Positions 2,756 to 63,925 of a stretch of 64,000 nt of DNA are shown here, one piece after another. The first letter of the stretch is position 1, and every line of letters starts with the position of its first letter. Source of the stretch: an uncultured bacterium (GTDB lineage Bacteria; Omnitrophota; Omnitrophia; Omnitrophales; Abzuiibacteriaceae); assembly GCA_964387845.1 (NCBI GenBank), contig CAYLXA010000003.1, forward strand, positions 164,089-228,088, given 5' to 3'. The notes beneath the pieces were generated by a model. It did no database searches and was not told the origin of the DNA. It saw only the letters and a program-made list of their open reading frames with translations. Both the position numbers and the translations under genes were made by a program.

Positions 2756-3655
2756 TTAATAAGTAAATTCTATACCCGAAACAATGCGCGTATCGAGCTT
2801 TTTTGCGCTGCCCGGGTTGGAATTGTATTCGTTAATGAGGCTGAATTTCAGATTCAAATTGTCGGTAATCGGATTTTTCAGAGCCGTTTCCGCTTTCAGG
2901 CGGAATGAGCGCTCACCGCTCAACGAAGGATAAGCATAAACATCTTCCGAAATCGTCGATTTTCCGATCAAACGTTTTTCAAGATAAATGTGCGGCGTCA
3001 AAACAAATTCGCTTTCGTTTTTTTCGTCCGTTCGAAAGTTCGTAAAGGTCACGCCGGCGCCGGCTTCGGCCATGAATTTAAAATTATCCGAATCGCTGAA
3101 CCAGTAGCCGAGTCCCGTGGACGGTGTGTAGCGCGAATCGATATTGGCAAACCGGTCGTGATCGCCCTCGCCCTTTGTAAAGTGAAACCACTTTTTCTCC
3201 TCTCCGAAGCTCCAGGCGTAGCGCACAAGCCCGGAATATTTTTGCGCGTTCATTTTGCGGTCGCGTTCCGAATAATAACCGTCCGCTTTAATGTCGAATT
3301 CGTTCACTTTTTCGACTTTCCGCTTAATTTCAATGGTTCCGGATAGTTCCGAAGTATTTGTATTGCCGCGCTGCCTCGAAAATCCGCCGAAAACTTTTCC
3401 GCTCCAAAGTTTTGGGTCTTCCGAAACGCTTTCCGGAACCGGTTGAGCCGCCACCGCGCCCTTAATTTCCGAAACCGCTTGTTTAGAAATCGTGAGCGTC
3501 CCCAAATGTTCTGTTGTGACAATATAGGAAGCAGCGTCGGTTTTGGCGATAGCCCCCGTAATTTTGTCTCCGTTTACGAGAAAAATCTCATCTGCCAGGA
3601 CAGATTGTGCGTTGATAATGAGGAAAAATGTGGCCAAAGTAAAAAGCGTTTTCAT
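2756..3655 (-). CDS. DUF481-family outer-membrane beta-barrel protein (YdiY-like)
   Basis: Signal peptide MKTLFTLATFFLIINAQSVLA, alternating hydrophobic beta-strand pattern and a C-terminal aromatic residue (…IEFTY). From memory it resembles DUF481. It sits 1 nt upstream of pfkA. Confidence 0.55.
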   Translation of the reverse strand: MKTLFTLATFFLIINAQSVLADEIFLVNGDKITGAIAKTDAASYIVTTEHLGTLTISKQAVSEIKGAVAAQPVPESVSEDPKLWSGKVFGGFSRQRGNTNTSELSGTIEIKRKVEKVNEFDIKADGYYSERDRKMNAQKYSGLVRYAWSFGEEKKWFHFTKGEGDHDRFANIDSRYTPSTGLGYWFSDSDNFKFMAEAGAGVTFTNFRTDEKNESEFVLTPHIYLEKRLIGKSTISEDVYAYPSLSGERSFRLKAETALKNPITDNLNLKFSLINEYNSNPGSAKKLDTRIVSGIEFTY

Positions 3656-9764: not shown

Positions 9765-12005
<2,241 letters not shown>

Positions 12006-38683: not shown

Positions 38684-39799
38684 ATGGATCCTAATTCAAC
38701 ATTAAAATCACTTCTGGATTTTATGCTCCATGAAAAAGGAAGCGACCTTTATTTAAAATCAAGCGCACCGCCGTATTACCGCGCGGCGCATGAGCTCAAA
38801 AAGTTCCCCTATCCGAACGATGCGGCGATTTCTATAGATCAAATGAACAAAATCGCACAGCATTTGATGAAGCCGCATCATCAGGAGCTTCTTGAGCGCG
38901 AAAGAAGCGTTGATTTATCGTTCCGCATCGAAGGCCACGGCCGTTTGCGTGCCAATTTATTTTATCAGCAGGGCGAGTTATCATGCGTAATCCGGATTGC
39001 CTGGACGCAGATTCCGAGCTTTGAAGAATTGAAACTTCCGAAAATTCTCAAAAAGTCGGCACTTTCAGACCGCGGATTAGTGATTATTTCAGGCGCCGTA
39101 TCATCCGGGAAAAGCACTACGGCAAATTGTTTGATCGACATCATTAATCAAAATGTCGAAAAACACATCGTGACGATCGAAGATCCGCTTGAATTTATTC
39201 ATCAGGATAAAAAATCCCTGATGAACCAGCGCGAAATTGGTCAAGACACGCCCAATTTTGTGAACGCGCTCCGATATGCTGTCAGGCAGGCGCCGGACGT
39301 TATTTTTATCGGTGAAATGCGGGATTCCGAAACATTCTTGAGCGCGCTTGCAGCCGCCGAAATCGGCCGGCTTGTGATTACGACAGTTCATGCGCGAAGT
39401 GCCATGCATACGTTTGAACGTTTGGTGAGTTTTTTCCCGCCTGAGGCCCGCATCCGGATCTTGACGGAAATTTCCTACAATCTGAATATTATTTCCTGCC
39501 AGCGCCTGGTACCGCTTAAAACCGGGAAAGGCTACGCACCGGCGTTCGAAATTTTAGCCAACAACAACATCGTGGCGGATCTTGTCAGACAACAACGCTT
39601 TGATAAATTACAGCAAGTCATGCAAAACGGCGCATCCGAAGGCATGCAGACCATGAATCAATCGCTCATTCAATTGAAAGAGCAGGGCCTCATTTCCGAA
39701 CTTGAAATGTTCCGCGCATCCGACAAGCCGCAGGAGCTTTCGATGAATATGCGCGGCATCGAATTCGGCGGCGGAGGCGGCAAGATCATAGGCGATTAA
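38684..39799 (+). CDS. PilT/PilU-family type IV pilus retraction ATPase paralog
   Basis: Walker A GAVSSGKSTT, IEDPLEF, IGEMRD and His-box VITTVHA. Confidence 0.8.
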   Translation: MDPNSTLKSLLDFMLHEKGSDLYLKSSAPPYYRAAHELKKFPYPNDAAISIDQMNKIAQHLMKPHHQELLERERSVDLSFRIEGHGRLRANLFYQQGELSCVIRIAWTQIPSFEELKLPKILKKSALSDRGLVIISGAVSSGKSTTANCLIDIINQNVEKHIVTIEDPLEFIHQDKKSLMNQREIGQDTPNFVNALRYAVRQAPDVIFIGEMRDSETFLSALAAAEIGRLVITTVHARSAMHTFERLVSFFPPEARIRILTEISYNLNIISCQRLVPLKTGKGYAPAFEILANNNIVADLVRQQRFDKLQQVMQNGASEGMQTMNQSLIQLKEQGLISELEMFRASDKPQELSMNMRGIEFGGGGGKIIGD

Positions 39800-48947: not shown

Positions 48948-51221
48948 TTGGAAAAGATAAAAAAATTTTTTAATCTAGAATTCCGTTTATTTTTTCTGCT
49001 AGTTTCAATTCAAGCCGCTTTTTTTTTGACGTTAATTCTGCAAAAAAGGCTCCCAAATTCACACGACACATTCCATTTTTTTAGTCTCCAATATTATTAT
49101 TTAAATCATGCCGTGATGTATGGAGCCATTCCGCAATGGATCCCGTTTCTCACGCACGGATTGATTGCAAACGGATTTTATGCGCTGCAATGCGGGTTTC
49201 TACAGAACGTGCTTATGGCGGCTGCGCCGTTTTTGAGCAAAATCAATTTCTTGCCCGTATTTTATGCGGGCATGTTTGTCGATGAGCTTCTGCTGGTTGT
49301 TGGTACTTGGCTGCTTGCCAAAAGATTTTTTTCATCTTTATCGACCGTTTTTTTTGTTTGCATCTCGGTCGTCGGCTCCTCCGTTTGGGTAACCCAACCG
49401 TGGTTTAATTTTCGGTTTCTTTATACGGTTCCGCTTATGATTTATTTTTTTCATCTGTTTCTTGAATCTGCCAAATGGCGGTATTTTTTCCTAGGATTTG
49501 GCTTAATGGCCTTTCAAACGCTCGGCAATTTGGCGTATTCGATTCCGTTTACCAGTGTTTTTATTTTCATGTACTTTTTATTTTATACAGCTTTAAATTT
49601 CAGAAACGTACTGGCTCAAGCCAAACAAATAAAATTTAATTTTTCGTTGCTGATTCCGGCTTTGTGGGTGATTGCACTATTCGTGCTCTGTTACAGCATT
49701 CTTTCATTCGGAACGGATGAGGTAATGCATTACGGTTTTAACAGGAATCGAGACGGCACTGTCAGCCTCGGTGATTTTTTGGATGCAAGCCCACTTTTGG
49801 CCAGGCTCAGTCCCGATGAGCTTCTGTTTGGTGCGCTTCCGTCAATTGATTACTCGCTATATGCAGGAGTGGCGGCAGTTTATTTTGCGATAGCGGGCGC
49901 TATTGCAAACAGAAGTAGAAATAAAATCGTATTTGTTTTATTGGCCATTTTTATCATGCTCTTTTCTCAGGGAGCTTTTGTCAGCATGTTTTTTTATTAT
50001 GTCTGGCCCATGATGAAATATTTCCGCCACATTGAATTGACGATGAGTTTTTTCAGGCTATCCATGTGCTTTTTAGCGGGTTTTGGCTTCGAGTGGCTCT
50101 TGGTTCACAAGACGGAAACAGGGAGGGCACATGTTTTTATAGCGTCGGTTTGCTTTATCGCATCATTAGGATATTTTATTTTGGGCTATGGTGAAAATAG
50201 CAACGGTTTTTTAATATTGATAATCGGAACTTTATTTTCATTTTTTCTTTTATTTGACAGAAAGAAGTGGCATGGAGTTACTGTTGTACTTTTATTAATG
50301 CTCCATAGCGTTGATATATTTGCATATAAATGGACCGAGTTTGAAAAGAAAAGTTTTTTACTCAATGAGCAACAGTATGAAATTCTAAAATTTTCAAAGA
50401 TCCCGTTTGTTAGTAAAAGAGACCAAGGATATTCGGGTCGAGAACCTATTTTGGGCGATTTGCTTCAGTTCGTGATTCGCGGAGGGAATTATTGGACGAT
50501 TTATGCATTTCTTTTCAAAGATGACTTCGATAGCTATTTACAGACCCATCAATGGATGCTACCTCTCGACCAGTATTTAAGGGCCTATGCCGGGGTTTCT
50601 ATATATGATCGTCAATCGGTGCCAATACCTACGTTTCGCATCAACCGCGCTTTGGTATTTCCAAGAAGTTCTTCTTTGCAAAAAATCAGCTCCCTCACCG
50701 AAGACAAAATCCAGTTCTTCTCGGATGCCCATATCCTGGGTTCTCCGGATGAGGTTGCCGGATTAATGACAGACCCTCAATTTAAGGGAGATCTTCTTTT
50801 CTTGAATCAGCCGGGCCATGATCCTAAACCCTTTAACCGGCCGCTTGATTCCAATGAGCGCCTGAATCTCGACTATGAAGTCACTCATTTTGATTCCAAT
50901 CAAATCCAAGTCTCAGTCAATATCCCGGGCAATCAACCCGCCTGGATATTCTACAGCGATGTCTGGCATCCTTTTTGGAAGGTAATAGTCAACGGTAAAA
51001 CAAAAACAGTCTATAAAGCCGATCTTGCCTATAAAGCCGCCCCCCTAGAACCCGGGCAAAACAACATACGTTTCTACTTCGAATCCAACTGGATCTCTTT
51101 CCTTCATCTCTTCTTTAACCTCCATGCCGTCTTCTGGCTCCTCATCCTGTGCCTGCTCATTGCCAAGATCTGTGTGCCGGAGGGGAGGCAGCGCGGCGTG
51201 AAGATATATGAATTAATTTAG
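48948..51221 (+). CDS. YfhO-like GT-C-type membrane protein, paralog 2 (757 aa; TTG start)
   Basis: Same architecture as 44055-46421. The first in-frame start is TTG at 48948. Confidence 0.45.
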   Translation: MEKIKKFFNLEFRLFFLLVSIQAAFFLTLILQKRLPNSHDTFHFFSLQYYYLNHAVMYGAIPQWIPFLTHGLIANGFYALQCGFLQNVLMAAAPFLSKINFLPVFYAGMFVDELLLVVGTWLLAKRFFSSLSTVFFVCISVVGSSVWVTQPWFNFRFLYTVPLMIYFFHLFLESAKWRYFFLGFGLMAFQTLGNLAYSIPFTSVFIFMYFLFYTALNFRNVLAQAKQIKFNFSLLIPALWVIALFVLCYSILSFGTDEVMHYGFNRNRDGTVSLGDFLDASPLLARLSPDELLFGALPSIDYSLYAGVAAVYFAIAGAIANRSRNKIVFVLLAIFIMLFSQGAFVSMFFYYVWPMMKYFRHIELTMSFFRLSMCFLAGFGFEWLLVHKTETGRAHVFIASVCFIASLGYFILGYGENSNGFLILIIGTLFSFFLLFDRKKWHGVTVVLLLMLHSVDIFAYKWTEFEKKSFLLNEQQYEILKFSKIPFVSKRDQGYSGREPILGDLLQFVIRGGNYWTIYAFLFKDDFDSYLQTHQWMLPLDQYLRAYAGVSIYDRQSVPIPTFRINRALVFPRSSSLQKISSLTEDKIQFFSDAHILGSPDEVAGLMTDPQFKGDLLFLNQPGHDPKPFNRPLDSNERLNLDYEVTHFDSNQIQVSVNIPGNQPAWIFYSDVWHPFWKVIVNGKTKTVYKADLAYKAAPLEPGQNNIRFYFESNWISFLHLFFNLHAVFWLLILCLLIAKICVPEGRQRGVKIYELI
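49062..49150 (+). repeat. 89-bp copy identical to 44169-44257
   Basis: See partner. Confidence 0.9.
49999..50052 (+). repeat. 54-bp copy identical to 45106-45159
   Basis: See partner. Confidence 0.9.
50679..51188 (+). repeat. 510-bp copy identical to 45867-46376
   Basis: See partner. Confidence 0.9.
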
Positions 51222-52199
51222 AGGAAGTTTTATGATGCTGGCTGAAATTAGCGGCTCACCGATTTCAATTTCGGTTCCAACCTGAAGATAATCACTTGCA
51301 ACGAAACCAAGCGCAAGCGGCTTTGAAAGCGCAGGCGAAAACACGGCGCTTGTGATCCGGCCGATTTCCTTTCCCGATTTTTGAATTTTATCTCCCAAAT
51401 TAGGGATTTTGTCTCCGGCCACAATAATTCCGGTTAACTGTTTTGCAAATTTTCCGCGGCTGTCGATTCGCGCGACAATTTCCTGGCCCGGGTAGCAGCC
51501 TTTTGTAAAGCTCACAGCTTTTGGCTCGATTAGTTTCACTTCCGGCAAGATAATGTCTTCAGTCAGGTCAATTCCATACCGCGGCGTTCCGGATTCAACG
51601 CGTAAAATCTGAATAATTTCAGATTCAATTTGCGAGATGCCCAGCGGCTGCGCAGCGCTTTTGATTTTTTCGAGTGCTTTGCTTTTTTCTTGGCTCGGAA
51701 TCACAATGCACCAAGTTTTAAATCCGAAAAGGGAGATACAGAAAATCCGGCAGTCAAAATCTTTTGCTTTTGACGGCCCGTGCGAAAAAATCTCCTTCGG
51801 GTAATCACTATTAAAAAGCGTTTTAACGGCATCTTCAGCTTTCGGGCCCAAAATCGCCAAGATCGAAAGCTCTTTAGATTGATTGGTAAATGTTACATCG
51901 TCGGTAACCGTAAATTTTTCTAGAACGCCAATGACTTTCTCGGTAATCGAAGATTCCATAGCAAGCCACGTTCTTTCATTTTCAACAAACACATTCATGT
52001 CGGCGATGATTTTAGCCTGAGCATTCAACAGGCAAGCATAACAGCCGCTTCCGGATTTTATGTTTTTGATATCATTTGTGAGCATCCGGTGAAGAAATGA
52101 AACGGCATCTTTTCCGTTCACTTCGATTAAGGCCCGGTTTGAAAGATCAATGATTGCGCCGTTAGATTTTGCGGATTTGTATTGATCCATGTTTTTCAT
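51213..52199 (-). CDS. ygfZ: Folate-binding Fe-S cluster repair/tRNA-modifying protein YgfZ (GcvT-like)
   Basis: KGCYPGQE signature and GcvT-like fold. Confidence 0.8.
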   Translation of the reverse strand: MKNMDQYKSAKSNGAIIDLSNRALIEVNGKDAVSFLHRMLTNDIKNIKSGSGCYACLLNAQAKIIADMNVFVENERTWLAMESSITEKVIGVLEKFTVTDDVTFTNQSKELSILAILGPKAEDAVKTLFNSDYPKEIFSHGPSKAKDFDCRIFCISLFGFKTWCIVIPSQEKSKALEKIKSAAQPLGISQIESEIIQILRVESGTPRYGIDLTEDIILPEVKLIEPKAVSFTKGCYPGQEIVARIDSRGKFAKQLTGIIVAGDKIPNLGDKIQKSGKEIGRITSAVFSPALSKPLALGFVASDYLQVGTEIEIGEPLISASIIKLPLN

Positions 52200-54361
52200 A
52201 TTTTTGTCGTCAAGCGGGTTCCGATCCAGAATAAAGCCAGTGATGCCAACACACCAAAAAGAATCTGGAGATTTGTAAAAGGTTCATAATCCATCGAAAC
52301 ATGCCGGTCTCCCGGTTTTACTTTGATGCGCATCAAGCGGTCTTCTTTTGCATAAATACCCCTCTCTTTCCCGTTGACGAGCGCTTTCCAGCCTTTTAAA
52401 TCAATAAACGTTGCAACCAACTCTTCTTCCCGTTGAATGGAAGGCAGCTTCACCTTTAGGCCGTTGCCTTTTATTTGAATCGACGCAGGATCGAGCCAGG
52501 ACCTGACGTTCCCATTTTGGAGATAAACAATACTAACCGGTTCCGGATTTTCAAAAAGCAAGAGAATGGATTGCTGGCCGGCAACGCGCCAGTTATTTTC
52601 CATCAATTCCCGGCGCGGCCCCGTCAAAATGTATTTAATTCCGAGGCGGTTCACTTTTTCCTGGTCCCAGGGCCCCACAAAATGATAAGCAAGCGGCGTC
52701 AGGTCAACTTCGATCATTTTTTCTTTCATCAGAAAATCCGCGAAACGCTTGTTTACCAAAATGCTGCGCCCCGCGCTGCCAAGAACATATTTTTCGGCAG
52801 CCCGTAAATCGTGCCCATGCGCGGTGACAATTTCGGCAGCAAGGCGTGAATTAGGCGTCATTGCGTCGAGAAATTTTTCAGGCAGAAATTTTGATTCCCA
52901 GCTGTTTGAGTAATGATGAATAGGAAAAGGGCCCGGGTCTTTGCTGACGCAGCATTCGGACCAATCTTCGAGATTCAAAATATTGGCTGCTATGGTTACC
53001 TTTGACCAAATCAGCGACAGGCCCAGCAGCCCGCAAAAAATCAGGCCGATGTTTGATCGGGCTTGTTTGCCGGAATCTATTTTTGAAGCCAAACAATAAA
53101 TTGCGTACAAAATAACAAAAGCCAAGAAAAAGAAAACGGGAAATTTATATTTCCACTCAATTTGATGCCAATCGAGCCAAAAAACTGATGCGAGAAGAAC
53201 CGCCGCAAGAATAGCTAAGGAAACCGCCAAAAACTTTTTCGAAAAGGCATTTTTTGAAATTTTATCCAGCGCGATTCCGGCCGGAACGGCAAAAAAAACG
53301 CTCGAAATCCACCAAATTCGCGTGGCATCGGTGGATTTAAGAAGCGGGGCGGATAAGTAAAAGTCTTTGAAACGCAAAAGGAGAAAGACAAAAATGACAG
53401 GCCCAATTCCTAAGATCAGAAACCGGACAGGAAAATAAATATTCTTTTTGAAATCATTCTTAAAACTCCAAACAAGCCCGATTAAGGATAAGGTGACAAG
53501 CGGCAGTGAAAAATAAATCGCGGAATCCATGTGATGGCGCCATGGTTTTTGCTGGCCGATCAGGCCCGATAAAAGCCGCTTAAAAGTGTAATCCGGAGCC
53601 AAATATTTTTGGCCGACGCGCGCGCTTTCTTTTACATGTTCAAAAAAGTTCATAAAATCTGCGTAATAAAATAAAAATCCTGCCGCGATCACGATCAAAG
53701 TCAAAATCATTTTTTTGTCAAACCTGGCTCGGGACAAAAAGAGTTGGTTCAACACGATAAAAGGGATCATCAAAAAAACAAGATTGGTGCTTGTGCTTAA
53801 AGTTGCGGTCACCATAGCCGCATAAAACAAGAAAAGGTACTTCGCGTTAGGTTTGTCATTGAAGCGCTCTTGAAATATCAAAATTGCTATAAAACATAAA
53901 AGCGACAATTGATAGTAATGGTGTGCGAAATGCCATAAAAATCCGGGCGAAAAAAAGGTGACGACTGCGCAAATAGCGGCAATTCCGGCCGGCATATATT
54001 TTTTCAAATAAAAAATAAGCGCAAACACCGTCAAAAACGCAATCGCAGCCCGATTTATTGTCATGGCTACCGGATTCGGAAAAAAATAATAGGTAAGGGC
54101 GTGGGGCGAAAACGGATAAGTGGTTGCATCGCCTAAAATAGGTGTTCCGAAATTGTGGTACAAGTTCATCATCGGAATTTGGCCGTCGCGCATGATCGAA
54201 CGGGCTATGAAAAGATTGGGAAACGTGTGATTGGCGTCGTCTGCCTTGTCGAATGCGGCACAATCGGTAAAAAAGAAAACTTTGATGATCACGAACAAAG
54301 CAATCGCCAGAGGAACAAACCCGTACACAATTTGTTTCTTAAAGCTAAACGGCATGAGCAT
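52196..54361 (-). CDS. YfhO-like polytopic membrane protein, distant third paralog (721 aa)
   Basis: N-terminal multi-TM region, extracytoplasmic domain, C-terminal TM (ILFGVLASLALFWIG). Overlaps mutY and ygfZ, consistent with operon coupling. Confidence 0.4.
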   Translation of the reverse strand: MLMPFSFKKQIVYGFVPLAIALFVIIKVFFFTDCAAFDKADDANHTFPNLFIARSIMRDGQIPMMNLYHNFGTPILGDATTYPFSPHALTYYFFPNPVAMTINRAAIAFLTVFALIFYLKKYMPAGIAAICAVVTFFSPGFLWHFAHHYYQLSLLCFIAILIFQERFNDKPNAKYLFLFYAAMVTATLSTSTNLVFLMIPFIVLNQLFLSRARFDKKMILTLIVIAAGFLFYYADFMNFFEHVKESARVGQKYLAPDYTFKRLLSGLIGQQKPWRHHMDSAIYFSLPLVTLSLIGLVWSFKNDFKKNIYFPVRFLILGIGPVIFVFLLLRFKDFYLSAPLLKSTDATRIWWISSVFFAVPAGIALDKISKNAFSKKFLAVSLAILAAVLLASVFWLDWHQIEWKYKFPVFFFLAFVILYAIYCLASKIDSGKQARSNIGLIFCGLLGLSLIWSKVTIAANILNLEDWSECCVSKDPGPFPIHHYSNSWESKFLPEKFLDAMTPNSRLAAEIVTAHGHDLRAAEKYVLGSAGRSILVNKRFADFLMKEKMIEVDLTPLAYHFVGPWDQEKVNRLGIKYILTGPRRELMENNWRVAGQQSILLLFENPEPVSIVYLQNGNVRSWLDPASIQIKGNGLKVKLPSIQREEELVATFIDLKGWKALVNGKERGIYAKEDRLMRIKVKPGDRHVSMDYEPFTNLQILFGVLASLALFWIGTRLTTKI

Positions 54362-55465: not shown

Positions 55466-56812
55466 ATGAATCATAATTTAGAAAAGCTGGATAAGAAACA
55501 TATCTGGCATCCTTTCACGCAAATGCGCGATTGGGAGCGTGACGACATTCTTGTTATCGAGTCCGGCAAGGGATGTTTCCTGCGCGATACGAAGGGCAGG
55601 CGCTACATTGACGGCGTTTCATCGCTTTGGTGCAATGTGCACGGCCACCGGGTTCCCGAAATTGACCGCGCAGTCAAAAAACAGCTCGGAAAAATTGCAC
55701 ATTCGACTTTTTTGGGGCTTTCGAATGTTCCCGCCGTTTTGCTGGCGCAAAAATTAGTCAAAATCGCGCCCAAAGGGCTTTCACGCGTTTTTTATTCGGA
55801 TTCCGGCTCCGAATCGGTCGAAATCGCGGTCAAAATGGCGTTTCAATATTGGCAAAACCTTGGCGAAAAGAAGAAAACCAAATTTATCCGGCTCACAAAC
55901 GCTTACCACGGCGATACGCTCGGCTCCGTGTCGGTTGGCGGCATTCAATTGTTCCACGATATTTATCACTCGCTTACTTTTAAAACGATTTCAGTTCCGG
56001 CACCGTACCGGTATCGCGACTCATTTTCCGGCACCGAATCCGAGTACGCCAAATTTTGCGCAGATCGGCTGGAGAAAATTATTCAGAAGCATGCCCGTGA
56101 AACGGCAGCGCTCATCATCGAACCTTTGATGCAGGGAGCTGCCGGAATGATCAATCAACCCCGCGGATTCATTTCGCGTGCAAGACAGCTGACAAAAAAG
56201 TATAATGTGCTGCTCATTTTTGACGAGGTGGCAACGGGTCTTGGGCGGACCGGAAAATGGTTTGCGGCGGATCATGAAAGAGTTTCGCCGGACATTTTGT
56301 GCATCGCGAAAGGTTTGACGGGCGGTTATTTGCCTCTTGCTGTAACTCTAGCAACAGAAAATATTTACAACGCTTTTAAGGCCGATTACGCTGCCCTCAA
56401 AACGTTCTTTCATGGCCATACTTATACGGCGAATCAGCTGGCTTCAGCCGCGGCACTTGCCAATCTCGCAGTTTTTGATAAAAATAAGACGCTCACGAAG
56501 CTCAATTCCAAGTTAAAGTTCTTATCTAAAAGGCTTGAATCATTTTGGAAGCTCCGGCATGTCGGCGATATCCGCCAGACTGGTTTTATGGCCGGCATTG
56601 AACTTGTCCGAGACCGGATGACGAAAGAACCGTACGATTGGAAGGAAAAAATCGGGATCCGGGTCATTGAGGAAGCGCGTAAGCATGGCGTCATCATCCG
56701 GCCGCTTGGAAATGTGATCGTGCTGATGCCGCCGCTTGCGATCGAAATGAAAACGCTCGAAAAATTGTTGAATGTAGTTTATAGGTCAATTCAGAAAGTA
56801 ACGGAACGTTAA
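55466..56812 (+). CDS. bioA: Adenosylmethionine-8-amino-7-oxononanoate aminotransferase
   Basis: HIWHPFTQM, DGVSSLWCNVHGH and FDEVATGLGRTG. Confidence 0.9.
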   Translation: MNHNLEKLDKKHIWHPFTQMRDWERDDILVIESGKGCFLRDTKGRRYIDGVSSLWCNVHGHRVPEIDRAVKKQLGKIAHSTFLGLSNVPAVLLAQKLVKIAPKGLSRVFYSDSGSESVEIAVKMAFQYWQNLGEKKKTKFIRLTNAYHGDTLGSVSVGGIQLFHDIYHSLTFKTISVPAPYRYRDSFSGTESEYAKFCADRLEKIIQKHARETAALIIEPLMQGAAGMINQPRGFISRARQLTKKYNVLLIFDEVATGLGRTGKWFAADHERVSPDILCIAKGLTGGYLPLAVTLATENIYNAFKADYAALKTFFHGHTYTANQLASAAALANLAVFDKNKTLTKLNSKLKFLSKRLESFWKLRHVGDIRQTGFMAGIELVRDRMTKEPYDWKEKIGIRVIEEARKHGVIIRPLGNVIVLMPPLAIEMKTLEKLLNVVYRSIQKVTER

Positions 56813-56815
56813 ATT

Positions 56816-57526
56816 ATGGGTCGGGGGATTTTTATAACGGGAACGGGGACCGGTGTCGGGAAAACAATTATTTCCGCCGGCCTCGCGCTCGCGCTGAAAG
56901 AGCGAGGCATCAAAGTCGGTGTAATGAAACCAATCGCGACAGGCTGTGTCGGCGAGAACGGAACGCTCATCAGTACGGATGCTGTTTATTTGTTTGAAGC
57001 GGCAGAGAATGAATACGCACCTCTCACCAATCCTTACCGTTTCCGAAATCCGGTTGCGCCGAACGTGGCGCAGATTTATGAGCAGCGCGAAATCGATACG
57101 GATGCGATTTTGGCGGCGTATAAAAAATTGACGGAACTTTACGATTTTGTCATCGTCGAAGGCATCGGCGGTTTGATGGTTCCGATCAAGAAGAAATATT
57201 TTGTCACCAATTTAGTGCGCGAAATGGATTTGCCGGTGGTGATTGTGGCGCACATCGGACTTGGTTCTATCAATCACACGCTTTTAACGGTTGATTCCGC
57301 CATGATCCGCGGGCTTCAAATCCGCGGCATTATTTTTAACCGCGCGCCGCTTGTTAATTTTTCGCTCGCGGAACTCACAAACCCGAAAGTGATCAATGAA
57401 CTGACGGGTCTTCCTATTTTGGGAACGCTTCCCGAGCTTGAAGATGTGAACGTGGAGCAGTTCCGCTACGGTCGGCTGCTTGAGATTTTCAAAGACCGGA
57501 TTAATATCGAACAAATTCTGAAATAA
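56816..57526 (+). CDS. bioD: Dethiobiotin synthetase
   Basis: IFITGTGTGVGKT P-loop and VIVEGIGGLMVP. Confidence 0.88.
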   Translation: MGRGIFITGTGTGVGKTIISAGLALALKERGIKVGVMKPIATGCVGENGTLISTDAVYLFEAAENEYAPLTNPYRFRNPVAPNVAQIYEQREIDTDAILAAYKKLTELYDFVIVEGIGGLMVPIKKKYFVTNLVREMDLPVVIVAHIGLGSINHTLLTVDSAMIRGLQIRGIIFNRAPLVNFSLAELTNPKVINELTGLPILGTLPELEDVNVEQFRYGRLLEIFKDRINIEQILK

Positions 57527-57528
57527 TT

Positions 57529-58599
57529 ATGAACAAAAAAGTGCTGGTAGCCATGTCCGGCGGTGTCGATTCTTCAGTAGCTGCATACTTACTGAAAGAA
57601 GCCGGGTGGACTGTGGGCGGTGCCACAATTCGCACCTGGGCGAGCGGCGAATGCAAGGATATCAACACCAAAACCTGCTGCGGCGTGATTGGTGTTGAAG
57701 ATGCGCGGGACGTTGCCTGGAAGCTTGATATTCCGTACCACGTTTTTAATTTTGAAAAGGAATTTAAAGCAAAAGTCGTCGATTATTTTTCGCGCGAATA
57801 TTTAAACGGACGGACGCCGAATCCGTGCATCGCGTGTAATCAGCATATTAAATTTGAATTATTTTTGGCGCGTGCACGCGAACTCGGATACGACCATATC
57901 GCAACCGGCCATTATGCGCAAATGACGTTTGATGAATCCACAAAACGCTACGGCGTTAAAGAAGGCGCGGATGGCACCAAAGATCAGGCGTATGTCCTCT
58001 TCCCGCTTTCTCAGGATGTTCTCTCGCATTTAGAGCTCCCCATTGGGAAATATCCAAAGACCGAAATTCGCCGGGTTGCGAGAAAATTGGAACTAAGAGT
58101 TGCGGACAAGCCCGACTCAATGGAAATTTGTTTTATCCCCAGCAATGATTACGCAGGATTCCTGGAGCGGGAGCTTAAACTTGAAGAAAAAACCGGCGAC
58201 ATTGTGGATCAAGATGGCAAAGTACTCGGACAGCACAAAGGTTACTACCACTACACCATCGGCCAGAGGAAGGGAATCAACATCGCACATCAGCACGCGC
58301 TTTATGTGACGGATATTATCCCGGAGAAAAATTTGGTTGTGGTGGGCGCCAAATCTGATGTGAAACGTTCCCGCTGTGAAGTTGCGGATGTGAATTGGCT
58401 TCATCCGGTCAACGGCAAGCCTGTAAGAGTTCAGGCTAAAATTCGCGCGCATCACGAAAAAGCGTGGGGAATGTTGAGAAAAATTTCCGAATCCGACGCT
58501 GAAGTTATCTTTGAAGACCCGCAAGATGCCATCACGCCCGGTCAGGCCTGTGTTTTTTATGACGGCGATAAAGTTTTGGGCGGGGGCTGGATCAAATGA
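57529..58599 (+). CDS. mnmA: tRNA-specific 2-thiouridylase MnmA
   Basis: VLVAMSGGVDSSVAA PP-loop, CNQHIKF and the conserved Cys residues. Confidence 0.92.
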   Translation: MNKKVLVAMSGGVDSSVAAYLLKEAGWTVGGATIRTWASGECKDINTKTCCGVIGVEDARDVAWKLDIPYHVFNFEKEFKAKVVDYFSREYLNGRTPNPCIACNQHIKFELFLARARELGYDHIATGHYAQMTFDESTKRYGVKEGADGTKDQAYVLFPLSQDVLSHLELPIGKYPKTEIRRVARKLELRVADKPDSMEICFIPSNDYAGFLERELKLEEKTGDIVDQDGKVLGQHKGYYHYTIGQRKGINIAHQHALYVTDIIPEKNLVVVGAKSDVKRSRCEVADVNWLHPVNGKPVRVQAKIRAHHEKAWGMLRKISESDAEVIFEDPQDAITPGQACVFYDGDKVLGGGWIK

Positions 58600-59426
58600 T
58601 ATTTTGGAATAAGCGAAAAAAACTTGAAGCGATTCTTAAAAAGTACCGCCAAGTGGTCATCGCCTATTCCGGAGGGATTGATTCCGCATTTCTGCTCAAA
58701 ATCGCACGCGACGCTTTGGGAAAAGAAAATGTCAAAGCCGTGACAGCGGTGAGTCCTGCTGTTCCGGAGCGCGAAGTCGAAGAAGCTTCCAAATTTGCGC
58801 AAGCAATCGATGCCGAACATATCCTGATTAAAACGCAGGAAATCGAAAACCCGAATTACGCACAAAATCCGGAGAATCGCTGTTATTTCTGCAAGAAAGA
58901 ACTTTATACCAAACTCACCGAACTTGCCCAAACGTGGCAGATCAAAACCATTTGCAGCGGAACGACTTTAAGCGATCTTGGGGATTGGCGCCCCGGACTA
59001 GACGCCGCAAAAGAATTTAAAATAGAAAGCCCGCTCATGGCTGCAAAGTTTTCGAAGGACGATGTCAGGCATGAAGCGCGCAAACTCAATCTCAGCATTT
59101 GGGACAAACCCGCGACCCCGTGCTTGGCCAGCCGGTTTGCGTACGGCAATTCCATCACGGAAGAAAAACTGAATAAGATCGAAATCGGCGAAAATTATTT
59201 AAAAGATCTCGGCTTCAAAATTTTTCGCTTGAGGCATTTGGGCAAGGACGCGCGGCTTGAATTGGGTGAAATCGAATCAAAACTTTGCGCCAATCCATTT
59301 TTTCGGGACAATATTACACAATTTATTCATTCTCTTGGTTTTGAATCGCTGACATTTGATCAGTACCGTTCGGGCCGTTTAAACGAGGATGCCGGAATTA
59401 GGGCACAACATATCGCCACTATTTAA
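58596..59426 (+). CDS. larE: LarE-family PP-loop ATP pyrophosphatase / sulfur transferase (TIGR00268-like)
   Basis: VIAYSGGIDSAFLL PP-loop, NRCYFCK and TPCLASRF motifs. Confidence 0.65.
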   Translation: MIFWNKRKKLEAILKKYRQVVIAYSGGIDSAFLLKIARDALGKENVKAVTAVSPAVPEREVEEASKFAQAIDAEHILIKTQEIENPNYAQNPENRCYFCKKELYTKLTELAQTWQIKTICSGTTLSDLGDWRPGLDAAKEFKIESPLMAAKFSKDDVRHEARKLNLSIWDKPATPCLASRFAYGNSITEEKLNKIEIGENYLKDLGFKIFRLRHLGKDARLELGEIESKLCANPFFRDNITQFIHSLGFESLTFDQYRSGRLNEDAGIRAQHIATI

Positions 59427-59434
59427 AAATCGTC

Positions 59435-60727
59435 ATGAAAATCCGAGGACATTTTCTTAAACTACCGGATTATAAAGACCTTAGTCTCTCTACAACCCGC
59501 ATCAAACAAGCCGCCTTGCCCGCCGAGGTTGTTTTGCCGCTCAAACAGCATGTCGGCCTTCCTTCATACCCGATTATTAAGCAGGGAACGCCGGTTCAGG
59601 CGGGCACTAAAATTGCAGTCGGGCAAAACGAATTTTCATCCAATCTACATGCCAGCATTTCAGGCGTTGTTTCCGAAATTAATTCGGAGTGGATACGGAT
59701 CGAATCGGACAAGAAGGATGAATGGGACCCCTCTATTCAAGAAGATCGTAACTGGGAAGATGCGTCGCCTCAGGAAATTTTAAAACAAATCCAAGAATGC
59801 GGCATTGTCGGAATGGGCGGCCGGGGTTTTCCGACTCATTTAAAAATAAAACTGCTTCAAGAAAATCCTGTTGATTGGCTGGTCGTCAACGGCTGTGAGT
59901 CCGAGCCTTTTTTGACGTCTGATTATGTTTTAATGCTGAACAAATCCGCCGAAATTTTATACGGCATTAATTTGCTTTTGAAAGCAAGCGGCGCAAAACG
60001 CTGCATCATCGCAATTTCCGACGACAAGCTGGAAGCGATTGAAATTTTATGGAGCAAAATCCGTTCATTAAAGTTTCATCACATTGAAGTCCGGAAACTT
60101 CCGGCGCGTTATCCGCAGGGTTCGGAAGATAAGTTGAAAGAATCGCTTTTCGGCGGATTTTTGATGAAAAATACCGCGTCTGCTTTTGTTCAGAACGTGG
60201 CCACGGTATTTGCGGTTTATGAAGCAGTCCGCTATCACAAGCCGCTCGTTGAGCGTATTGTTACCGTCAGCGGCCATTGTGTTGTGGAGCCGCAAAATCT
60301 TTTGTGCCGGATCGGAACATCGGGTGAAAATCTGATACAAAACGCGAAGGGGCTTTTGCGTTCTCCGAAACGGGTAACGTACGGCGGCCCTATGAATGGA
60401 ATTTCGGCCACGAGCTTAGAAATGCCCATAGCAAAGCCGGTGAGCGGAATTGTGGCGCTTGCGCAGGAGTTTATTAATGAAGGACGCGAAACCCCGTGTA
60501 TCCGCTGCGGATTTTGTGTGGAAAGCTGCCCCGAAGACCTGAATCCGGAAATGCTCATGCGCGCAGCGCGCAAAAAGAACGAACAGCTTATTTGGGAATT
60601 TGAACTTGAAAATTGCACCGAATGCGGAAACTGTGCTTATGTCTGCCCGTCTAAAATTCCGCTGACCGATATTTTCAGAAAAGCAAAATCATCGATTTTA
60701 CACATGCCGGAAGACCCGATTTTATGA
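59435..60727 (+). CDS. rnfC: RnfC-like subunit (NADH/FMN-binding plus two 4Fe-4S ferredoxin motifs)
   Basis: GMGGRGFPTHLK and two CxxCxxCxxxCP motifs (CIRCGFCVESCP, CTECGNCAYVCP). Confidence 0.8.
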   Translation: MKIRGHFLKLPDYKDLSLSTTRIKQAALPAEVVLPLKQHVGLPSYPIIKQGTPVQAGTKIAVGQNEFSSNLHASISGVVSEINSEWIRIESDKKDEWDPSIQEDRNWEDASPQEILKQIQECGIVGMGGRGFPTHLKIKLLQENPVDWLVVNGCESEPFLTSDYVLMLNKSAEILYGINLLLKASGAKRCIIAISDDKLEAIEILWSKIRSLKFHHIEVRKLPARYPQGSEDKLKESLFGGFLMKNTASAFVQNVATVFAVYEAVRYHKPLVERIVTVSGHCVVEPQNLLCRIGTSGENLIQNAKGLLRSPKRVTYGGPMNGISATSLEMPIAKPVSGIVALAQEFINEGRETPCIRCGFCVESCPEDLNPEMLMRAARKKNEQLIWEFELENCTECGNCAYVCPSKIPLTDIFRKAKSSILHMPEDPIL

Positions 60728-61611
60728 AAACAAAAGCCGCTTTGCCTTATTCAACCAAGCCGCATTGGCGTGCCCAGATTTCATCCAAAACCATCTCATG
60801 GCAGATGATTGCAGCGCTTTTTCCGGTTTGGTGCATCGGCCTTATGCAGAACGCACCGGCCGCGTTTTGGCAGGTCCTATCGAGTGTTGCGGCGGGGCTT
60901 TTCTTTCGTTTTTTATTTTCACTTGTTTCAAAACAAAAAAATTGGTTTGGAGAAAATACGGTTTATTCATGCGTTCTTTTTTCATTTCTAGTTCCATTTG
61001 GAATTTCTCCGGCCGCACTTTTAGTCGGAATCTTTTTTAGCGTGATTATTGCCGAAGAATGTTTCGGAGGGCGCGGCCAAAATATTTTCAACCCGGCTTT
61101 GACGGGCTTTGCGGCCGTCAGCTTTTTATTTAGAGACGAACTCGGATTTTGTTACGGAGAATTTGGGTCTATTTTGATTTCAACAGATCCCTCACAATCT
61201 ATTCCGGCTGTAGAAGTTGCACTGGTTTTGTTAGGCGGTGTTTATTTAATCTTAAAGCGCGCAATTGCATGGCAGATTCCGTTATTTTACTTTGCTCCTC
61301 TGTTTGTCATTATGACCTTTATTCAAGATGCCACAGCCGCAAAGCTTCCGCTGGCACCGGTTTTGTTCAGCACATTCTTTCTTGTGACGGATTATGCGTC
61401 ATCACCGATTTCTGTGCGTGCACGGATTCTTTATGCGCTGGTGTGCGGGCTTTTGTTTGCGGCATTCAATGAATGGCTGGCGGGATTTAATGCGATGGCG
61501 TGTTCAATTCTTCTGATGAATTCGGTTGCACCGCTTATGGATCGTTATTTATCGTCGCCCGCATTTTCTTTTCTTCGCCGTGAAGTAATCGCGAAGGAGC
61601 TTGAATCATGA
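60724..61611 (+). CDS. rnfD: RnfD/NqrB-family membrane subunit (short, 295 aa)
   Basis: GGRGQNIFNPALTGFAAVSFLF, FFLVTDYASSPISVRARILYALVCGLL and NSVAPLMDRY align with the E. coli RnfD motifs GGLGQNPFNPAMIGY / FFILTDPVTAS..GRLIFGALAGLL / NITVPLIDYY. Confidence 0.75.
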   Translation: MKTKAALPYSTKPHWRAQISSKTISWQMIAALFPVWCIGLMQNAPAAFWQVLSSVAAGLFFRFLFSLVSKQKNWFGENTVYSCVLFSFLVPFGISPAALLVGIFFSVIIAEECFGGRGQNIFNPALTGFAAVSFLFRDELGFCYGEFGSILISTDPSQSIPAVEVALVLLGGVYLILKRAIAWQIPLFYFAPLFVIMTFIQDATAAKLPLAPVLFSTFFLVTDYASSPISVRARILYALVCGLLFAAFNEWLAGFNAMACSILLMNSVAPLMDRYLSSPAFSFLRREVIAKELES

Positions 61612-61736
61612 AATCAAAAAAGACGAATAAAATTCGAAACAGCGTTTTCATTTTAACAGCGTTGCTCATTTCTAGTTTTCTGTTGCTTAATTATTTGGCA
61701 AGCGAGCAATATATCATTATCGGATGGGGCACATGA
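61608..61736 (+). CDS. Possible 42-aa single-TM peptide overlapping the rnfD stop
   Basis: ATGA overlap with rnfD. MKSKKTNKIRNSVFILTALLISSFLLLNYL... Below the ORF-track cutoff and speculative. Confidence 0.2.
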   Translation: MKSKKTNKIRNSVFILTALLISSFLLLNYLASEQYIIIGWGT

Positions 61737-62203
61737 ACCGGCTCTCACGGCTTGAATGGGCGGCCATCGCTGCTTTGTGCCTTCTGGTAGTGCCGGCTGA
61801 TGCCGGAGAGAGACTCATCTTATCTGCCGGAACATTGGCAGTTTCACTTGCGGCCGGAATGATCATTTATCCTTTTCGCAAAATTTTAACGCCGATATTT
61901 CAAATTTTGTTTTTACTGGTCTTAATTTCCACTTTGTTCGAAGTTTTGTATTTTATATTTCCATTTTCTTTCCCAGAGGTGCTGCCTCAAGCGGTTTTCG
62001 CGTCTTTGCTCTTGACGGTTGCTTCCAAAAAAGCTTCCGAGAGCTTTGAAATCGGCGGCCTTTTTCTTATTTTTATTTTAATTTCGGCGTTCGTCAATTG
62101 GGCGAGCCCCGCTGCAGTCAAGTTTTATCCAACAGCGTTTGTTGTTGTTGCATTTTTGTTCGCATTTTTGAATTTTTCGTATGCTTCCAGGAAAAATAAA
62201 TAA
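61724..62203 (+). CDS. Polytopic membrane protein, possibly a degenerate RnfE/RnfA-family subunit
   Basis: 159 aa, 5-6 TM. Only a weak resemblance (ALCLLVV versus GLCPLLAV). Confidence 0.3.
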   Translation: MGHMNRLSRLEWAAIAALCLLVVPADAGERLILSAGTLAVSLAAGMIIYPFRKILTPIFQILFLLVLISTLFEVLYFIFPFSFPEVLPQAVFASLLLTVASKKASESFEIGGLFLIFILISAFVNWASPAAVKFYPTAFVVVAFLFAFLNFSYASRKNK

Positions 62204-62221
62204 CGAACGGAAAAACGTGTT

Positions 62222-62743
62222 ATGAATCAATGGTACGCAACACTCACGCTCCTGGCTGTGATGCAAATCTGGTTTTACCGGATTGATGTGAAAAGAGCCG
62301 CCGCAGGTTTTCTTTTTTATTGGGGGTCTATTTATTTGGGGCTTTTGAGTTCCGAATTTGCAAGCAAAGCTCTAAGTGAATTTGAAATCGAATGGTGGAT
62401 TCCGGTCATGATTTGTTTGGCATCTGTTACGATCGGTGAAACAGCCGAAGTTCTGGCGGCATCGGTCGGAAAATCAGTCGAAAAAAGACGTCAATCGCTC
62501 CCTTCATTCTTTACATTTTCAAATCTCTATCTTGCCTTGGTCTGGCTGAGTTTGTGGCATCATCCGTTTTTGTATCAAAGCCAGGTTGAAATGATGGTTA
62601 TCGCTACTTTTAGTTTTCTTTTTTTGATTATTCTGTGCGGAATCAGAGACCGTTTGACGCTCTATGATATTCCGAAATATTTGCGGGAGCTTCCAATATT
62701 CATGATTACGGCTGCCTTGTTTTTGCTGATCTTTCTGAGATAA
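62222..62743 (+). CDS. Divergent RnfA/RnfE (NqrD/E)-family membrane subunit
   Basis: C-terminal IRDRLTLYDIPKYLRELPIFMITAALFLLIF aligns with E. coli RnfA [31 protein letters not shown]. The NCAVLG motif is degenerate (SNLYLAL). Confidence 0.45.
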   Translation: MNQWYATLTLLAVMQIWFYRIDVKRAAAGFLFYWGSIYLGLLSSEFASKALSEFEIEWWIPVMICLASVTIGETAEVLAASVGKSVEKRRQSLPSFFTFSNLYLALVWLSLWHHPFLYQSQVEMMVIATFSFLFLIILCGIRDRLTLYDIPKYLRELPIFMITAALFLLIFLR

Positions 62744-62842: not shown

Positions 62843-63925
62843 ATGATGGAAATCCGCAGTGTCATTGAACTTGCCATTGAGCGGGGCGCTTCTGACATTC
62901 ATATTGAGGTAGGCCGGCCGGTCACGTTTAGAGAAGGCGGCGCGCTCGTTTCCATCAATGATACTTCGCTTCAGCCTGCCGACACGGAAGCTTACATGCG
63001 CGCCATTACCGACGATTCTCACCGCGACAAAATCGAGCGTGTCGGCGGCGTCGATTTCGGCTTTGCTTACGAGCGTAAGGCCCGGCTTCGTGTTTCTGCG
63101 TTCCGCCAGCGTGGCAGTTATGGCATGGTTATCCGCATTTTGCCCCGTACTTTTTTTGATTTTGATTCAATAGGAATTCCGCAGAAAGTTGTGCAGCTTC
63201 TTAATCAGCCCCGCGGCATGATTTTAGTAACGGGCCCTACGGGAAGCGGAAAAACCACGACGCTTGCAACGATGATTGATTACATCAACCGCAATCATCC
63301 GGTTCATATTGTGACGGTCGAAGACCCGATCGAATTTGTTCATGATCACAAAAAAGCGGTTGTCATTCAGCGTGAAGTCGGCGTCGACGTCCCTTCATTT
63401 TCAGAGGCAGTAATTAAATCTTTGCGTCAAGACCCAAACGTGTTGTTGATCGGGGAAATGCGTGATTTATCAACTATGGAAGCGGCGATTACGGCAGCTG
63501 AAACCGGCCACTTGGTTTTTGCGACTTTGCACACGACCGGCGCCGCGCGCACGGTTGACCGTATCATCGATGTGTTTCCGTCGCACCAACAGGCGCAAAT
63601 TCGAACCCAGTTGTCGGTTACGCTGATTGCCGTGATTTCGCAGGTTTTGATTCCACGTATCGACCGTGCAGGCCGCATCGCAGGATTTGAAATCATGATT
63701 TCAACGCCGGCCATTTCAAATCTCATCCGTGAAGGGAAAACGTATCAAATTTTTTCTGAACTTCAAACCGGATCCAAGCACGGCATGCGGACACTCGATA
63801 GCCATTTAATCGAACTTTATCAGAAGGGCATTATCAGCTACGAATCTGCCGTTGAAAAAGCCTACGATCCCGCCTTCCTTTCTCAGCAAGCCTCCAAATT
63901 GACCGTCGCCGGTTCAAAGAAATAA
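62843..63925 (+). CDS. pilT: Type IV pilus twitching-motility ATPase PilT
   Basis: ASDIHI, GPTGSGKTTTLA, VEDPIEFVH, IGEMRD, the His-box and the C-terminal AHLIxxY-like region. Confidence 0.92.
   Translation: MMEIRSVIELAIERGASDIHIEVGRPVTFREGGALVSINDTSLQPADTEAYMRAITDDSHRDKIERVGGVDFGFAYERKARLRVSAFRQRGSYGMVIRILPRTFFDFDSIGIPQKVVQLLNQPRGMILVTGPTGSGKTTTLATMIDYINRNHPVHIVTVEDPIEFVHDHKKAVVIQREVGVDVPSFSEAVIKSLRQDPNVLLIGEMRDLSTMEAAITAAETGHLVFATLHTTGAARTVDRIIDVFPSHQQAQIRTQLSVTLIAVISQVLIPRIDRAGRIAGFEIMISTPAISNLIREGKTYQIFSELQTGSKHGMRTLDSHLIELYQKGIISYESAVEKAYDPAFLSQQASKLTVAGSKK

Follow-up and report, generated by a model that had tools for sequence, protein, structure and literature searches.

An Rnf-like gene module of an uncultured Omnitrophota bacterium with a complete RnfC and a membrane part that appears to have lost most of the redox chain

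The Rnf complex (RnfABCDGE), a Na+/H+-translocating ferredoxin:NAD+ oxidoreductase, and the Na+-translocating NADH:quinone oxidoreductase (Na+-NQR) lie at the core of energy conservation in anaerobes and pathogens. Here we describe a divergent relative of Rnf, a module of five genes in a 64,000-nucleotide stretch of DNA (the window) from an uncultured bacterium of the Omnitrophota (GenBank assembly GCA_964387845.1, contig CAYLXA010000003.1, positions 164,089 to 228,088). In the Rnf model for Acetobacterium woodii, Na+ is pumped via RnfA/E and pumping is gated by their iron-sulfur (Fe-S) cluster (PMC11889175). There is continuing debate on whether the ions cross by way of RnfD/NqrB or of RnfA/E (PMC9588780, PMC11889175). 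The ligands of this intramembrane cluster are invariant cysteines, Cys25 and Cys113 of RnfA and Cys26 and Cys109 of RnfE in Clostridium tetanomorphum; in the same structure flavin mononucleotide (FMN) is bound covalently to Thr153 of RnfD and Thr164 of RnfG, and the distance from the riboflavin to the RnfC cluster is 11.7 Å (PMC9588780). In A. woodii the flavinylated residues are T156 of RnfD and T185 of RnfG, the riboflavin is bound by N123 and D249 of RnfD, and R154 and E158 of RnfA sense the last cluster of RnfB (PMC11889175).

Two remodelled relatives of Rnf are of particular relevance. In Na+-NQR, the RnfC homologue NqrA has lost its cofactors, and the riboflavin of NqrB passes electrons directly to ubiquinone in the membrane (PMC12174285). 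The two-subunit Nqr/Rnf-like systems, in the passages of PMC10979944 that cite Meheust et al. (2021), contain an RnfD-like protein without the flavinylated threonine and with an apparent non-covalent flavin site, and those passages propose that they act as one-way electron carriers from NAD(P)H (PMC10979944).

The window module is well supported, by comparison of its predicted proteins with those of solved complexes, as a derivative of RnfCDGEA(B) that has kept the protein scaffold and lost most of the redox chain. As judged from its residues it cannot work as a classical Rnf, RnfC alone retaining its redox cofactor sites.

The Rnf-like module and its cofactor sites

Families were assigned by Pfam and NCBIfam scans of the ~60 open reading frames (ORFs) of the window. 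The genes of the module, in order, are the following (aa, amino acids):

59435 to 60727, forward strand: rnfC, intact (TIGR01945, E=1e-117, 393 bits against a cutoff of 246)
60724 to 61611, forward strand: rnfD-like gene, product RnfD' (PF03116, E=7e-50, 170 bits against a cutoff of 27.7)
61608 to 61736, forward strand: 42-aa single-helix ORF without a Pfam or NCBIfam match
61733 to 62203, forward strand: gene of an RnfE/NqrD-like protein of 156 aa, E' (PF02508, E=0.012); the ORF is open from 61724 (159 aa)
62222 to 62743, forward strand: gene of an RnfA/NqrE-like protein of 173 aa, A' (TIGR01943, E=3.7e-6)

The rnfC product comprises an RnfC_N barrel, a NuoF-like FMN/NADH domain and a C-terminal ferredoxin domain for two [4Fe-4S] clusters, with further matches to NF003454 (370 bits against a cutoff of 345), PF01512 (E=1e-37) and PF13375 (E=4e-19). 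The motifs GIVGMGGRGFPTHLK, NGCESEPF and YPQG and two Cx2Cx2Cx3CP motifs are conserved in 6/6 family members, in all of which the glycine-rich motif follows the pattern GIVGMGGxGFPTHLK. A complete RnfC subunit carrying NADH and FMN sites and two [4Fe-4S] clusters is therefore a well supported prediction.

RnfD' keeps the fold of its canonical counterpart and lacks the flavinylation site. Members of the RnfD' family are 257-311 aa long with PF03116 as the sole domain, and a profile of seven sequences aligned end-to-end with the solved RnfD 9eri_D (E=2.9e-52), although the window protein scores 122 bits for the stricter TIGR01946, short of its cutoff of 207. The flavinylation motif S-x-A-T-P/T-L was present in all four canonical references (E. 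coli RsxD, two canonical RnfD and one NqrB) and in none of six family sequences, where the threonine is replaced by Ile or Met or is deleted; the window protein reads SQSIP at the site that reads SQATP in E. coli. The periplasmic loop around this residue is shorter by 25-60 residues in 6/6 members, and when the family profile is aligned with 9eri_D and 7zc6_D, the threonine-bearing segment of these structures is an insert that the profile lacks. The core motifs FGGxGQNxFNPAL, FFLVTDxxSSP and ILLMN..PLIDRY are kept. At the two riboflavin positions the six members have N/N/N/Q/Q/N for the Asn of NPAL and D/N/D/D/D/D for the Asp of TDY, so that the predicted riboflavin-pocket residues are conserved or conservatively replaced. 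In an alignment of RnfD' with NqrB (E ~1e-24) the invariant Gly58 falls on Gly140 of NqrB, which we take to be part of the quinone site of NQR; we give this match little weight because canonical RnfD has other small residues at that position.

The identity of the two small membrane proteins was examined by profile searches, both of them showing the RnfA/E homology that a preliminary description of this DNA, made from the sequence alone, had proposed. The TIGR01943 match of A' covers residues 103-172 only, that is, the C-terminal 70, in which the signature GIR(D/E)RL...P...LP(I)..I(S/T)A is retained, and the region of NCAVLG is without cysteine, much as that description had it. A profile of eight A' sequences matched only RnfA/NqrE chains in the PDB (9eri_A, 8ahx_A, 7zc6_A and 7xk3_E, E=1.3e-5 to 3.6e-5), a comparison with RsxA and NqrE by hhalign gave 91.6% probability (E=8e-7), and MAFFT aligned A' colinearly with RnfA over the full length, with no cysteine at either ligand position. 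From these alignments we regard A' as an RnfA/NqrE homologue.

E' sits in the rnfE slot and has about six helices. The window protein matches PF02508 with 16.1 bits, against a gathering score of 23.8, over residues 20-86 (profile positions 25-91). Seven of 16 E' members match PF02508 singly (best E=3.6e-5); it is the only recurrent family, and none of them reaches the gathering score. A profile of the 16 sequences matched RnfE only in the PDB (7zc6_E, E=9e-4; 9eri_E, E=0.0096), in the same register as PF02508. Early profile comparisons with 2-5 E' sequences were not significant, and the homology became detectable only after an exhaustive hidden Markov model (HMM) search had enlarged the family. 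The evidence that E' is a divergent RnfE-type subunit is thus moderate but convergent, and we accept E' and A' as homologues of the PF02508 Rnf-Nqr superfamily, with scores below the curated threshold for strict membership. A comparison of E' with A' gave no detectable similarity.

The cysteines of the intramembrane cluster are largely gone. In A', the first is replaced by Trp (Arg or Phe in distant members) and the second lies in a region (TNC/NCAVLG) that is replaced or deleted; the A' orthologue at locus L015 has zero cysteines. In E', the first is kept in the window subclade and in P0142 only, and the second is absent throughout the family. The A' positions that match RnfA R154/E158 are variable. 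Hydropathy topology was unstable, with 3-6 helices depending on the sequence, and was used only where six helices were called; there, E' is N-in like RsxE/NqrD and A' is N-out like RsxA/NqrE, which is suggestive only of an inverted E'/A' topology as in the canonical pair. AlphaFold2 models from shallow alignments were poor, with a predicted local distance difference test score (pLDDT) of 56.8 for A' and 45.3 for E', and we draw no conclusion from them; Foldseek comparison of these models with the PDB returned nothing below E=2, with RnfE and NqrD among the insignificant matches only.

In the place of rnfG, between rnfD and the E' gene, 7/7 loci have a 32-42 aa ORF whose product combines a basic N-terminus with one hydrophobic helix. 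Its position and topology suggest a remnant RnfG membrane anchor, and its similarity to RnfG N-termini was too weak to score. The Pfam and NCBIfam scans of the window ORFs found no rnfG, rnfB, apbE or nqrF-like sequence, in line with the preliminary description's statement that rnfG and rnfB are not in the window. Likewise, tblastn on the window and eight related loci found no RnfG/NqrC (four queries; also no PF04205), RnfB, ApbE or NqrF, the RnfB queries matching only RnfC's own ferredoxin domain. rnfB, the gene of the polyferredoxin subunit for ferredoxin entry, was absent from the cluster at every locus, from the 64-kb window and from the flanks of at most 10 kb around the relatives' loci, which together make up the sequence visible to us.

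These results bear on whether the window carries part of a normal Rnf with its rnfB and rnfG (and apbE) at another place in the genome. Some organisms do have split rnf clusters, and 64 kb of this genome and the relatives' short flanks were in view. However, RnfB and RnfG provided from another locus would not make good the absence of the RnfD threonine and the four RnfA/E cysteines, which the canonical path needs; the rnfG slot is filled by a conserved mini-ORF, and conservation is lacking at the RnfA residues in contact with RnfB. A split Rnf appears contradicted by these residue-level losses, and we consider it extremely improbable. The module is not a classical Rnf because the FMN-bearing threonine of RnfD and the four RnfA/E cysteines have been lost, beyond the missing genes; its function is probably different from that of Rnf. 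The loss of ligands at the residue level strengthens the case, made in the preliminary description, for a stripped-down Rnf-like module.

Distribution, gene neighbourhood and selection

Relatives of the module are very rare. A word-seeded search of 5.8 billion proteins found the two small proteins in 5 and 2 clusters only, and an exhaustive HMMER search with the 159-aa family among 1.84 billion cluster representatives found 14 representatives of the E' family, each standing for a cluster at 50% identity. Thirteen of these 14 are 150-165 aa long and aligned over the full length. The other, P0151 (311 aa; L014:2476-3411, ENA ERZ21828298), is a natural fusion of E' and A' in one polypeptide, which shows, as far as gene fusion can, that the two proteins act jointly. 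The E' part of P0151 apparently lacks the last helix (an alignment gap spans the FYP...AF segment), a loss that would be required for joining an N-in/C-in protein to an N-out one.

Two scans of the GTDB representative genomes, based on the alignments of A' and RnfD', turned up no member of the family. The sole match, to the RnfD' patterns, L008:8275-14279 in a Bacteroidaceae metagenome-assembled genome (JAZLBF010000049.1), is an nqrABCDEF operon, distant and not rnf, and was set aside as a family member and served as the canonical NqrB/C/D/E reference; its A subunit is without Fe-S cysteines, and an NqrF-sized ORF follows. The JGI metagenome scan found no member beyond the contig already found. 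The RnfD' clade is isolated, its four members scoring 468-563 bits and the next match 140 bits at 28% identity, so that no RnfD' intermediates were found. Full-text literature searches on partial or incomplete rnf clusters returned no account of such an arrangement.

The genes that flank the module in the window are the following:

55466 to 56812, forward strand: bioA, adenosylmethionine-8-amino-7-oxononanoate transaminase (TIGR00508, E=1.1e-164, 548 bits against a cutoff of 405)
56816 to 57526, forward strand: bioD, dethiobiotin synthase, a conserved neighbour (TIGR00347, E=8e-51)
57529 to 58599, forward strand: mnmA, tRNA 2-thiouridine(34) synthase (NF001138, E=4e-128)
58596 to 59426, forward strand: larE, LarE-family PP-loop ATP-dependent sulfur transferase (TIGR00268, E=1.9e-90, 303 bits against a cutoff of 150)
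62843 to 63925: pilT, the next gene 3' of the A' gene

By the ORF list, nine genes from bioA through A' are tightly coupled. The junctions are a 3-nt gap (bioA/bioD), a 2-nt gap (bioD/mnmA), a 4-nt overlap (mnmA/larE, 58599/58596), an 8-nt gap (larE/rnfC, 59426/59435), 4-nt overlaps for rnfC/rnfD (60727/60724), rnfD/42-aa ORF (61611/61608) and 42-aa ORF/E' (from 61733), and an 18-nt gap (E'/A'). The ORF list and the profile scans bear out the coordinates and junctions that the preliminary description had given for the string from bioA to rnfD, and those of the last ORF (62222-62743). Its RnfE-like ORF at 61724-62203 is indeed an open frame, but the start is most likely at 61733 (156 aa) because the ATGA there makes a 4-nt overlap with the 42-aa ORF as in relatives. 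Promoter scans (15 against 11.9 in shuffled sequence) and terminator scans (22 against 15.9) found nothing above expectation; the operon boundaries therefore rest on gene spacing only.

bioA opens the co-directional string and keeps this position in relatives; it is a conserved neighbour outside the Rnf-like module. Two other lineages keep the full string of mutY (on the opposite strand), bioA, bioD, mnmA, larE, rnfC, rnfD, the 42-aa ORF, E', A' and pilT. In the contexts of four divergent members, whose E' is 23-32% identical to that of the window, rnfC, rnfD, the small ORF, E' and A' are each present. Downstream, pilT follows wherever the contig continues (that of L019 stops within A'), and polA-coaE-rho-rpmE-prfA come next in two lineages. 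These longer contigs thus show pilT, polA, coaE and rho, and not rnfG or rnfB, immediately downstream. Across the seven loci sampled, the module always lies between mnmA or larE and pilT where this is visible, and this is part of one block of synteny, running from mutY through pilT-polA-coaE-rho, that is shared across the lineage.

Several observations on these neighbours stand on their own. Among relatives, the pilT that follows the Rnf-like genes shows 96-98% identity. It is one of two genes for PilT-type ATPases in the window, the other being at 38684-39799, and two relatives have after it a giant ORF (3491-3636 aa) for which no Pfam matches are on record (L001:11992-20522; L014:4743-13411). 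MnmA carries C-x-x-C (NPCIACNQ), not the E. coli-type D-x-x-C, and the LarE-family protein carries CYFC and PCLASR; none of larA, larB and larC is near larE. The gene adjoining mutY encodes a 721-aa protein that is polytopic-looking by sequence, and an ORF of 721-726 aa occupies the equivalent position in L007 and L001. It is one of three large proteins in the window without Pfam or NCBIfam matches (44055-46421, 788 aa; 48948-51221, 757 aa; 52196-54361, 721 aa).

The combination of an Rnf-like module with two PP-loop thiolation enzymes, MnmA and the LarE-family protein, was called unusual in the preliminary description. Were the operon one functional unit, RnfC-RnfD' could supply electrons for sulfur insertion by these enzymes or for biotin synthesis. 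In 5/5 loci with enough upstream sequence, mnmA precedes rnfC, either immediately or separated from it by larE, some of the junctions being 4-nt overlaps, and the cysteine patterns of MnmA and the LarE-family protein are presumably like those of [4Fe-4S]-binding, non-sacrificial variants. However, the window clade and L019 have larE in the interval from mnmA to rnfC and two of the four sampled sublineages (L015/L016 and L017/L018) lack it there, and synteny extends far wider, from mutY and bioA/bioD to pilT, polA, coaE, rho and prfA. Since the synteny block is lineage-wide and larE is variably present, the adjacency is unspecific and says little; it is probably lineage synteny, and the idea of a meaningful coupling is not upheld. 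Moreover, a soluble reductase needs no four membrane subunits, and we know of no need for an external reductase for the Fe-S clusters of MnmA- or LarE-type enzymes. We regard an electron supply to thiolation or biotin synthesis as quite unlikely.

To see how the genes are constrained, we compared three genomes at the codon level. The ratio of nonsynonymous to synonymous substitution rates (dN/dS) was 0.01-0.25 for every gene of the string, indicating purifying selection, and as dS was saturated this and the following ratios are upper bounds. The genes fall into two classes of identity, 77-98% for pilT, bioD, mnmA, bioA, larE and rnfC, and 52-69% for rnfD, the 42-aa ORF, E' and A'. In the first class, bioD is 92% identical to its relatives with a dN/dS of ~0.03, and rnfC 77-82% identical with a dN/dS of 0.05-0.07; in the second, the 42-aa ORF is 62-69% identical within the close clade with a dN/dS of ~0.25. 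The dN of the four membrane genes was 0.20-0.39 against 0.12-0.15 for rnfC, a 2-3 times difference, and their dN/dS was 0.07-0.25. The membrane genes are real and constrained, more loosely than RnfC.

Looser constraint could also mark a decaying relic, with the membrane genes en route to loss and RnfC functional, if anything. Every cofactor site outside RnfC has been lost, and the membrane genes are 52-69% identical where pilT, bioD and mnmA are 88-98%. Against decay, there are zero frameshifts or stops in seven loci, the dN/dS values are low with true ratios lower still under saturated dS, protein lengths of 150-165 aa and gene order are kept down to 23-31% identity, the translational-coupling overlaps are conserved, the 32-42 aa peptide is retained, and a fusion has arisen and been kept. 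The module is not decaying because it recurs across at least 14 protein clusters and seven sampled loci under a dN/dS of 0.07-0.25, and the selection data appear to contradict a relic, which we consider very unlikely. The module is old, having diverged to 23-31% identity in E', and maintained.

Elsewhere, the window encodes a Na+-pyrophosphatase, KatG, a ferritin/Dps-like protein, MsrB, glycerol kinase, PFK, a sulfatase, a Liv-type ABC transporter and MTHFR, gene content that indicates a free-living organism exposed to oxygen. The Na+-translocating pyrophosphatase (6461-8911; NF001950, 1267 bits) suggests that membrane energetics based on Na+ are of importance to this bacterium. katG (9765-12002, reverse strand; catalase-peroxidase, 1257 bits) coincides with the only GC-rich stretch of the window (10001-12000, 0.52 against ~0.45), which may be a horizontally acquired island. 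A 299-aa ORF at 2756-3655 (reverse strand) has sub-threshold matches to the Leptospira-specific families Lepto_7_Nterm (E=6.7e-5) and LA_3334 (E=3.9e-4).

Proposed function of the module

The best explanation we can offer, and still a tentative one, is that the module forms a membrane-anchored, non-pumping NADH dehydrogenase in which electrons pass from RnfC to the riboflavin of RnfD' and on to a membrane acceptor. The five proteins would still assemble in the membrane. RnfC would oxidise NADH, and electrons would travel from its FMN through its two [4Fe-4S] clusters to the riboflavin in RnfD'; we propose this path because it is the sole canonical segment with surviving ligands. From there they would leave for a membrane acceptor, most plausibly quinone, by analogy with NqrB. 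No redox-driven ion pumping is expected because the gating Fe-S cluster of RnfA/E is gone. E', A' and the small peptide would serve mainly as a structural membrane bed for RnfD' and RnfC, a scaffold role that fits their amino-acid substitution rate of 2-3 times that of rnfC.

Three observations weigh against this explanation. The riboflavin-pocket Asn is replaced by Gln in three lineages and the Asp by Asn in one; the homology of E' to RnfE is only moderately significant and confined to the N-terminal half; and the invariant polar residues of A' (Gly72-Glu73, Trp58-Trp59 and Gln91) are ill explained by a pure scaffold role and could point to an ion- or ligand-binding role. The last point leads to a different possibility, in which the membrane part is redox-independent (a Na+/H+ leak, channel, transporter or sensor) and RnfC is a regulatory NADH-sensing cap or a membrane-tethered diaphorase that serves a soluble partner, such as flavodoxin, ferredoxin or thioredoxin-like proteins, via its exposed [4Fe-4S] clusters. 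E' likewise has an invariant Thr70 and a mostly conserved Glu73 that, with the A' residues, look intramembrane; canonical RnfA/E form the Na+ path (PMC11889175); the inverted orientation of E' and A' at six-helix calls resembles that of the canonical pair; and the Na+-pyrophosphatase of the window suggests Na+ bioenergetics. On the other hand, the Na+-coordinating region round the cluster (the TNC segment) is deleted or replaced, and evolution at 2-3 times the rate of rnfC would be unusual for a selective channel. We judge a redox-independent role unlikely and retain the non-pumping NADH dehydrogenase as the preferred reading.

More broadly, the module may represent a third functional branch, so far unrecognised, within the Rnf/Nqr superfamily. 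It would be an oxidoreductase made of RnfC and RnfD(riboflavin), taking electrons from NADH to quinone (or another membrane acceptor), that has shed the ferredoxin arm, the two covalent flavins and the intramembrane Fe-S centre and retains cofactor-free E and A subunits and an RnfG stub as scaffold; we put this forward as a doubtful proposition. It would then be a natural half-complex that isolates RnfC-to-RnfD electron transfer. A complex maintained by selection would offer a simplified system for the half of the path from RnfC to the RnfD riboflavin and would test the role of cofactor-free RnfA/E-type subunits. For the specialist, the surprise is a conserved, cofactor-free RnfA/E pair together with an RnfG stub. 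The module also carries a warning for annotation, as its rnfC and rnfD matches would score Rnf as present, while ferredoxin-linked ion pumping would not be possible.

Comparison with known systems

The module resembles the Rnf complex (7ZC6, 8AHX, 9ERI) in its gene order of C-D-(G slot)-E-A, in an RnfC above the rnfC/RsxC NCBI thresholds with all cofactor motifs, and in the full-length alignment of RnfD'. It differs in that it is without an RnfB gene, the RnfD flavinylation threonine and loop and the conserved A/E cysteines, that RnfG is reduced to a helix of 32-42 aa, and that E' (~156 aa) and A' (~173 aa) are shorter than the canonical 190-230 aa. With these losses, the U-shaped path from ferredoxin to NAD+ and cluster-gated Na+ pumping would be impossible as described for Rnf. 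By its predicted proteins the module is not an Rnf complex as defined, four defining features being absent.

A naturally reduced rnf cluster, at L013:4643-8965 (GCA_965355715.1, contig CBDTAX010000036.1), is among the nearest canonical RnfD relatives. It consists of apbE-rnfC-rnfD-rnfG and a 145-aa membrane ORF with four cysteines and no Pfam match, followed by convergent genes, and is without rnfB and recognisable rnfE/rnfA. Unlike the window module, it keeps ApbE, RnfG (FMN_bind) and the SATPL threonine of RnfD, which means that the opposite half of the chain is missing from it; the RnfD proteins of the two loci are only ~27% identical.

With the two-subunit Nqr/Rnf-like systems, as they appear in the passages cited above, the lost RnfD threonine is the sole shared trait. 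There the RnfD-like protein is fused to a PF00175 NAD-binding domain, and a flavinylated RnfG-like partner and ApbE are kept, whereas the window module has a separate, complete RnfC, no FMN_bind or ApbE nearby, and retains RnfE/RnfA-like proteins.

Na+-NQR (NqrABCDEF) is likewise a descendant of Rnf without RnfB, and its transfer from the riboflavin of NqrB to quinone is the model for the last step that we propose. Of its own features, NqrF and NqrC had no match by tblastn in the window and eight related loci; there is no flavinylation site, and RnfC is cofactor-bearing. In Na+-NQR it is NqrA that lost its cofactors, those of NqrB/C/D/E being kept and NqrF, the FAD/2Fe-2S subunit for NADH input, being recruited; the window module shows the mirror pattern, with cofactor sites retained in RnfC and lost from the membrane subunits. 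If the third branch is real, the module would have evolved as the mirror image of Na+-NQR and would be, besides NqrA and the two-subunit Nqr/Rnf-like systems, a further case of superfamily remodelling by selective cofactor loss.

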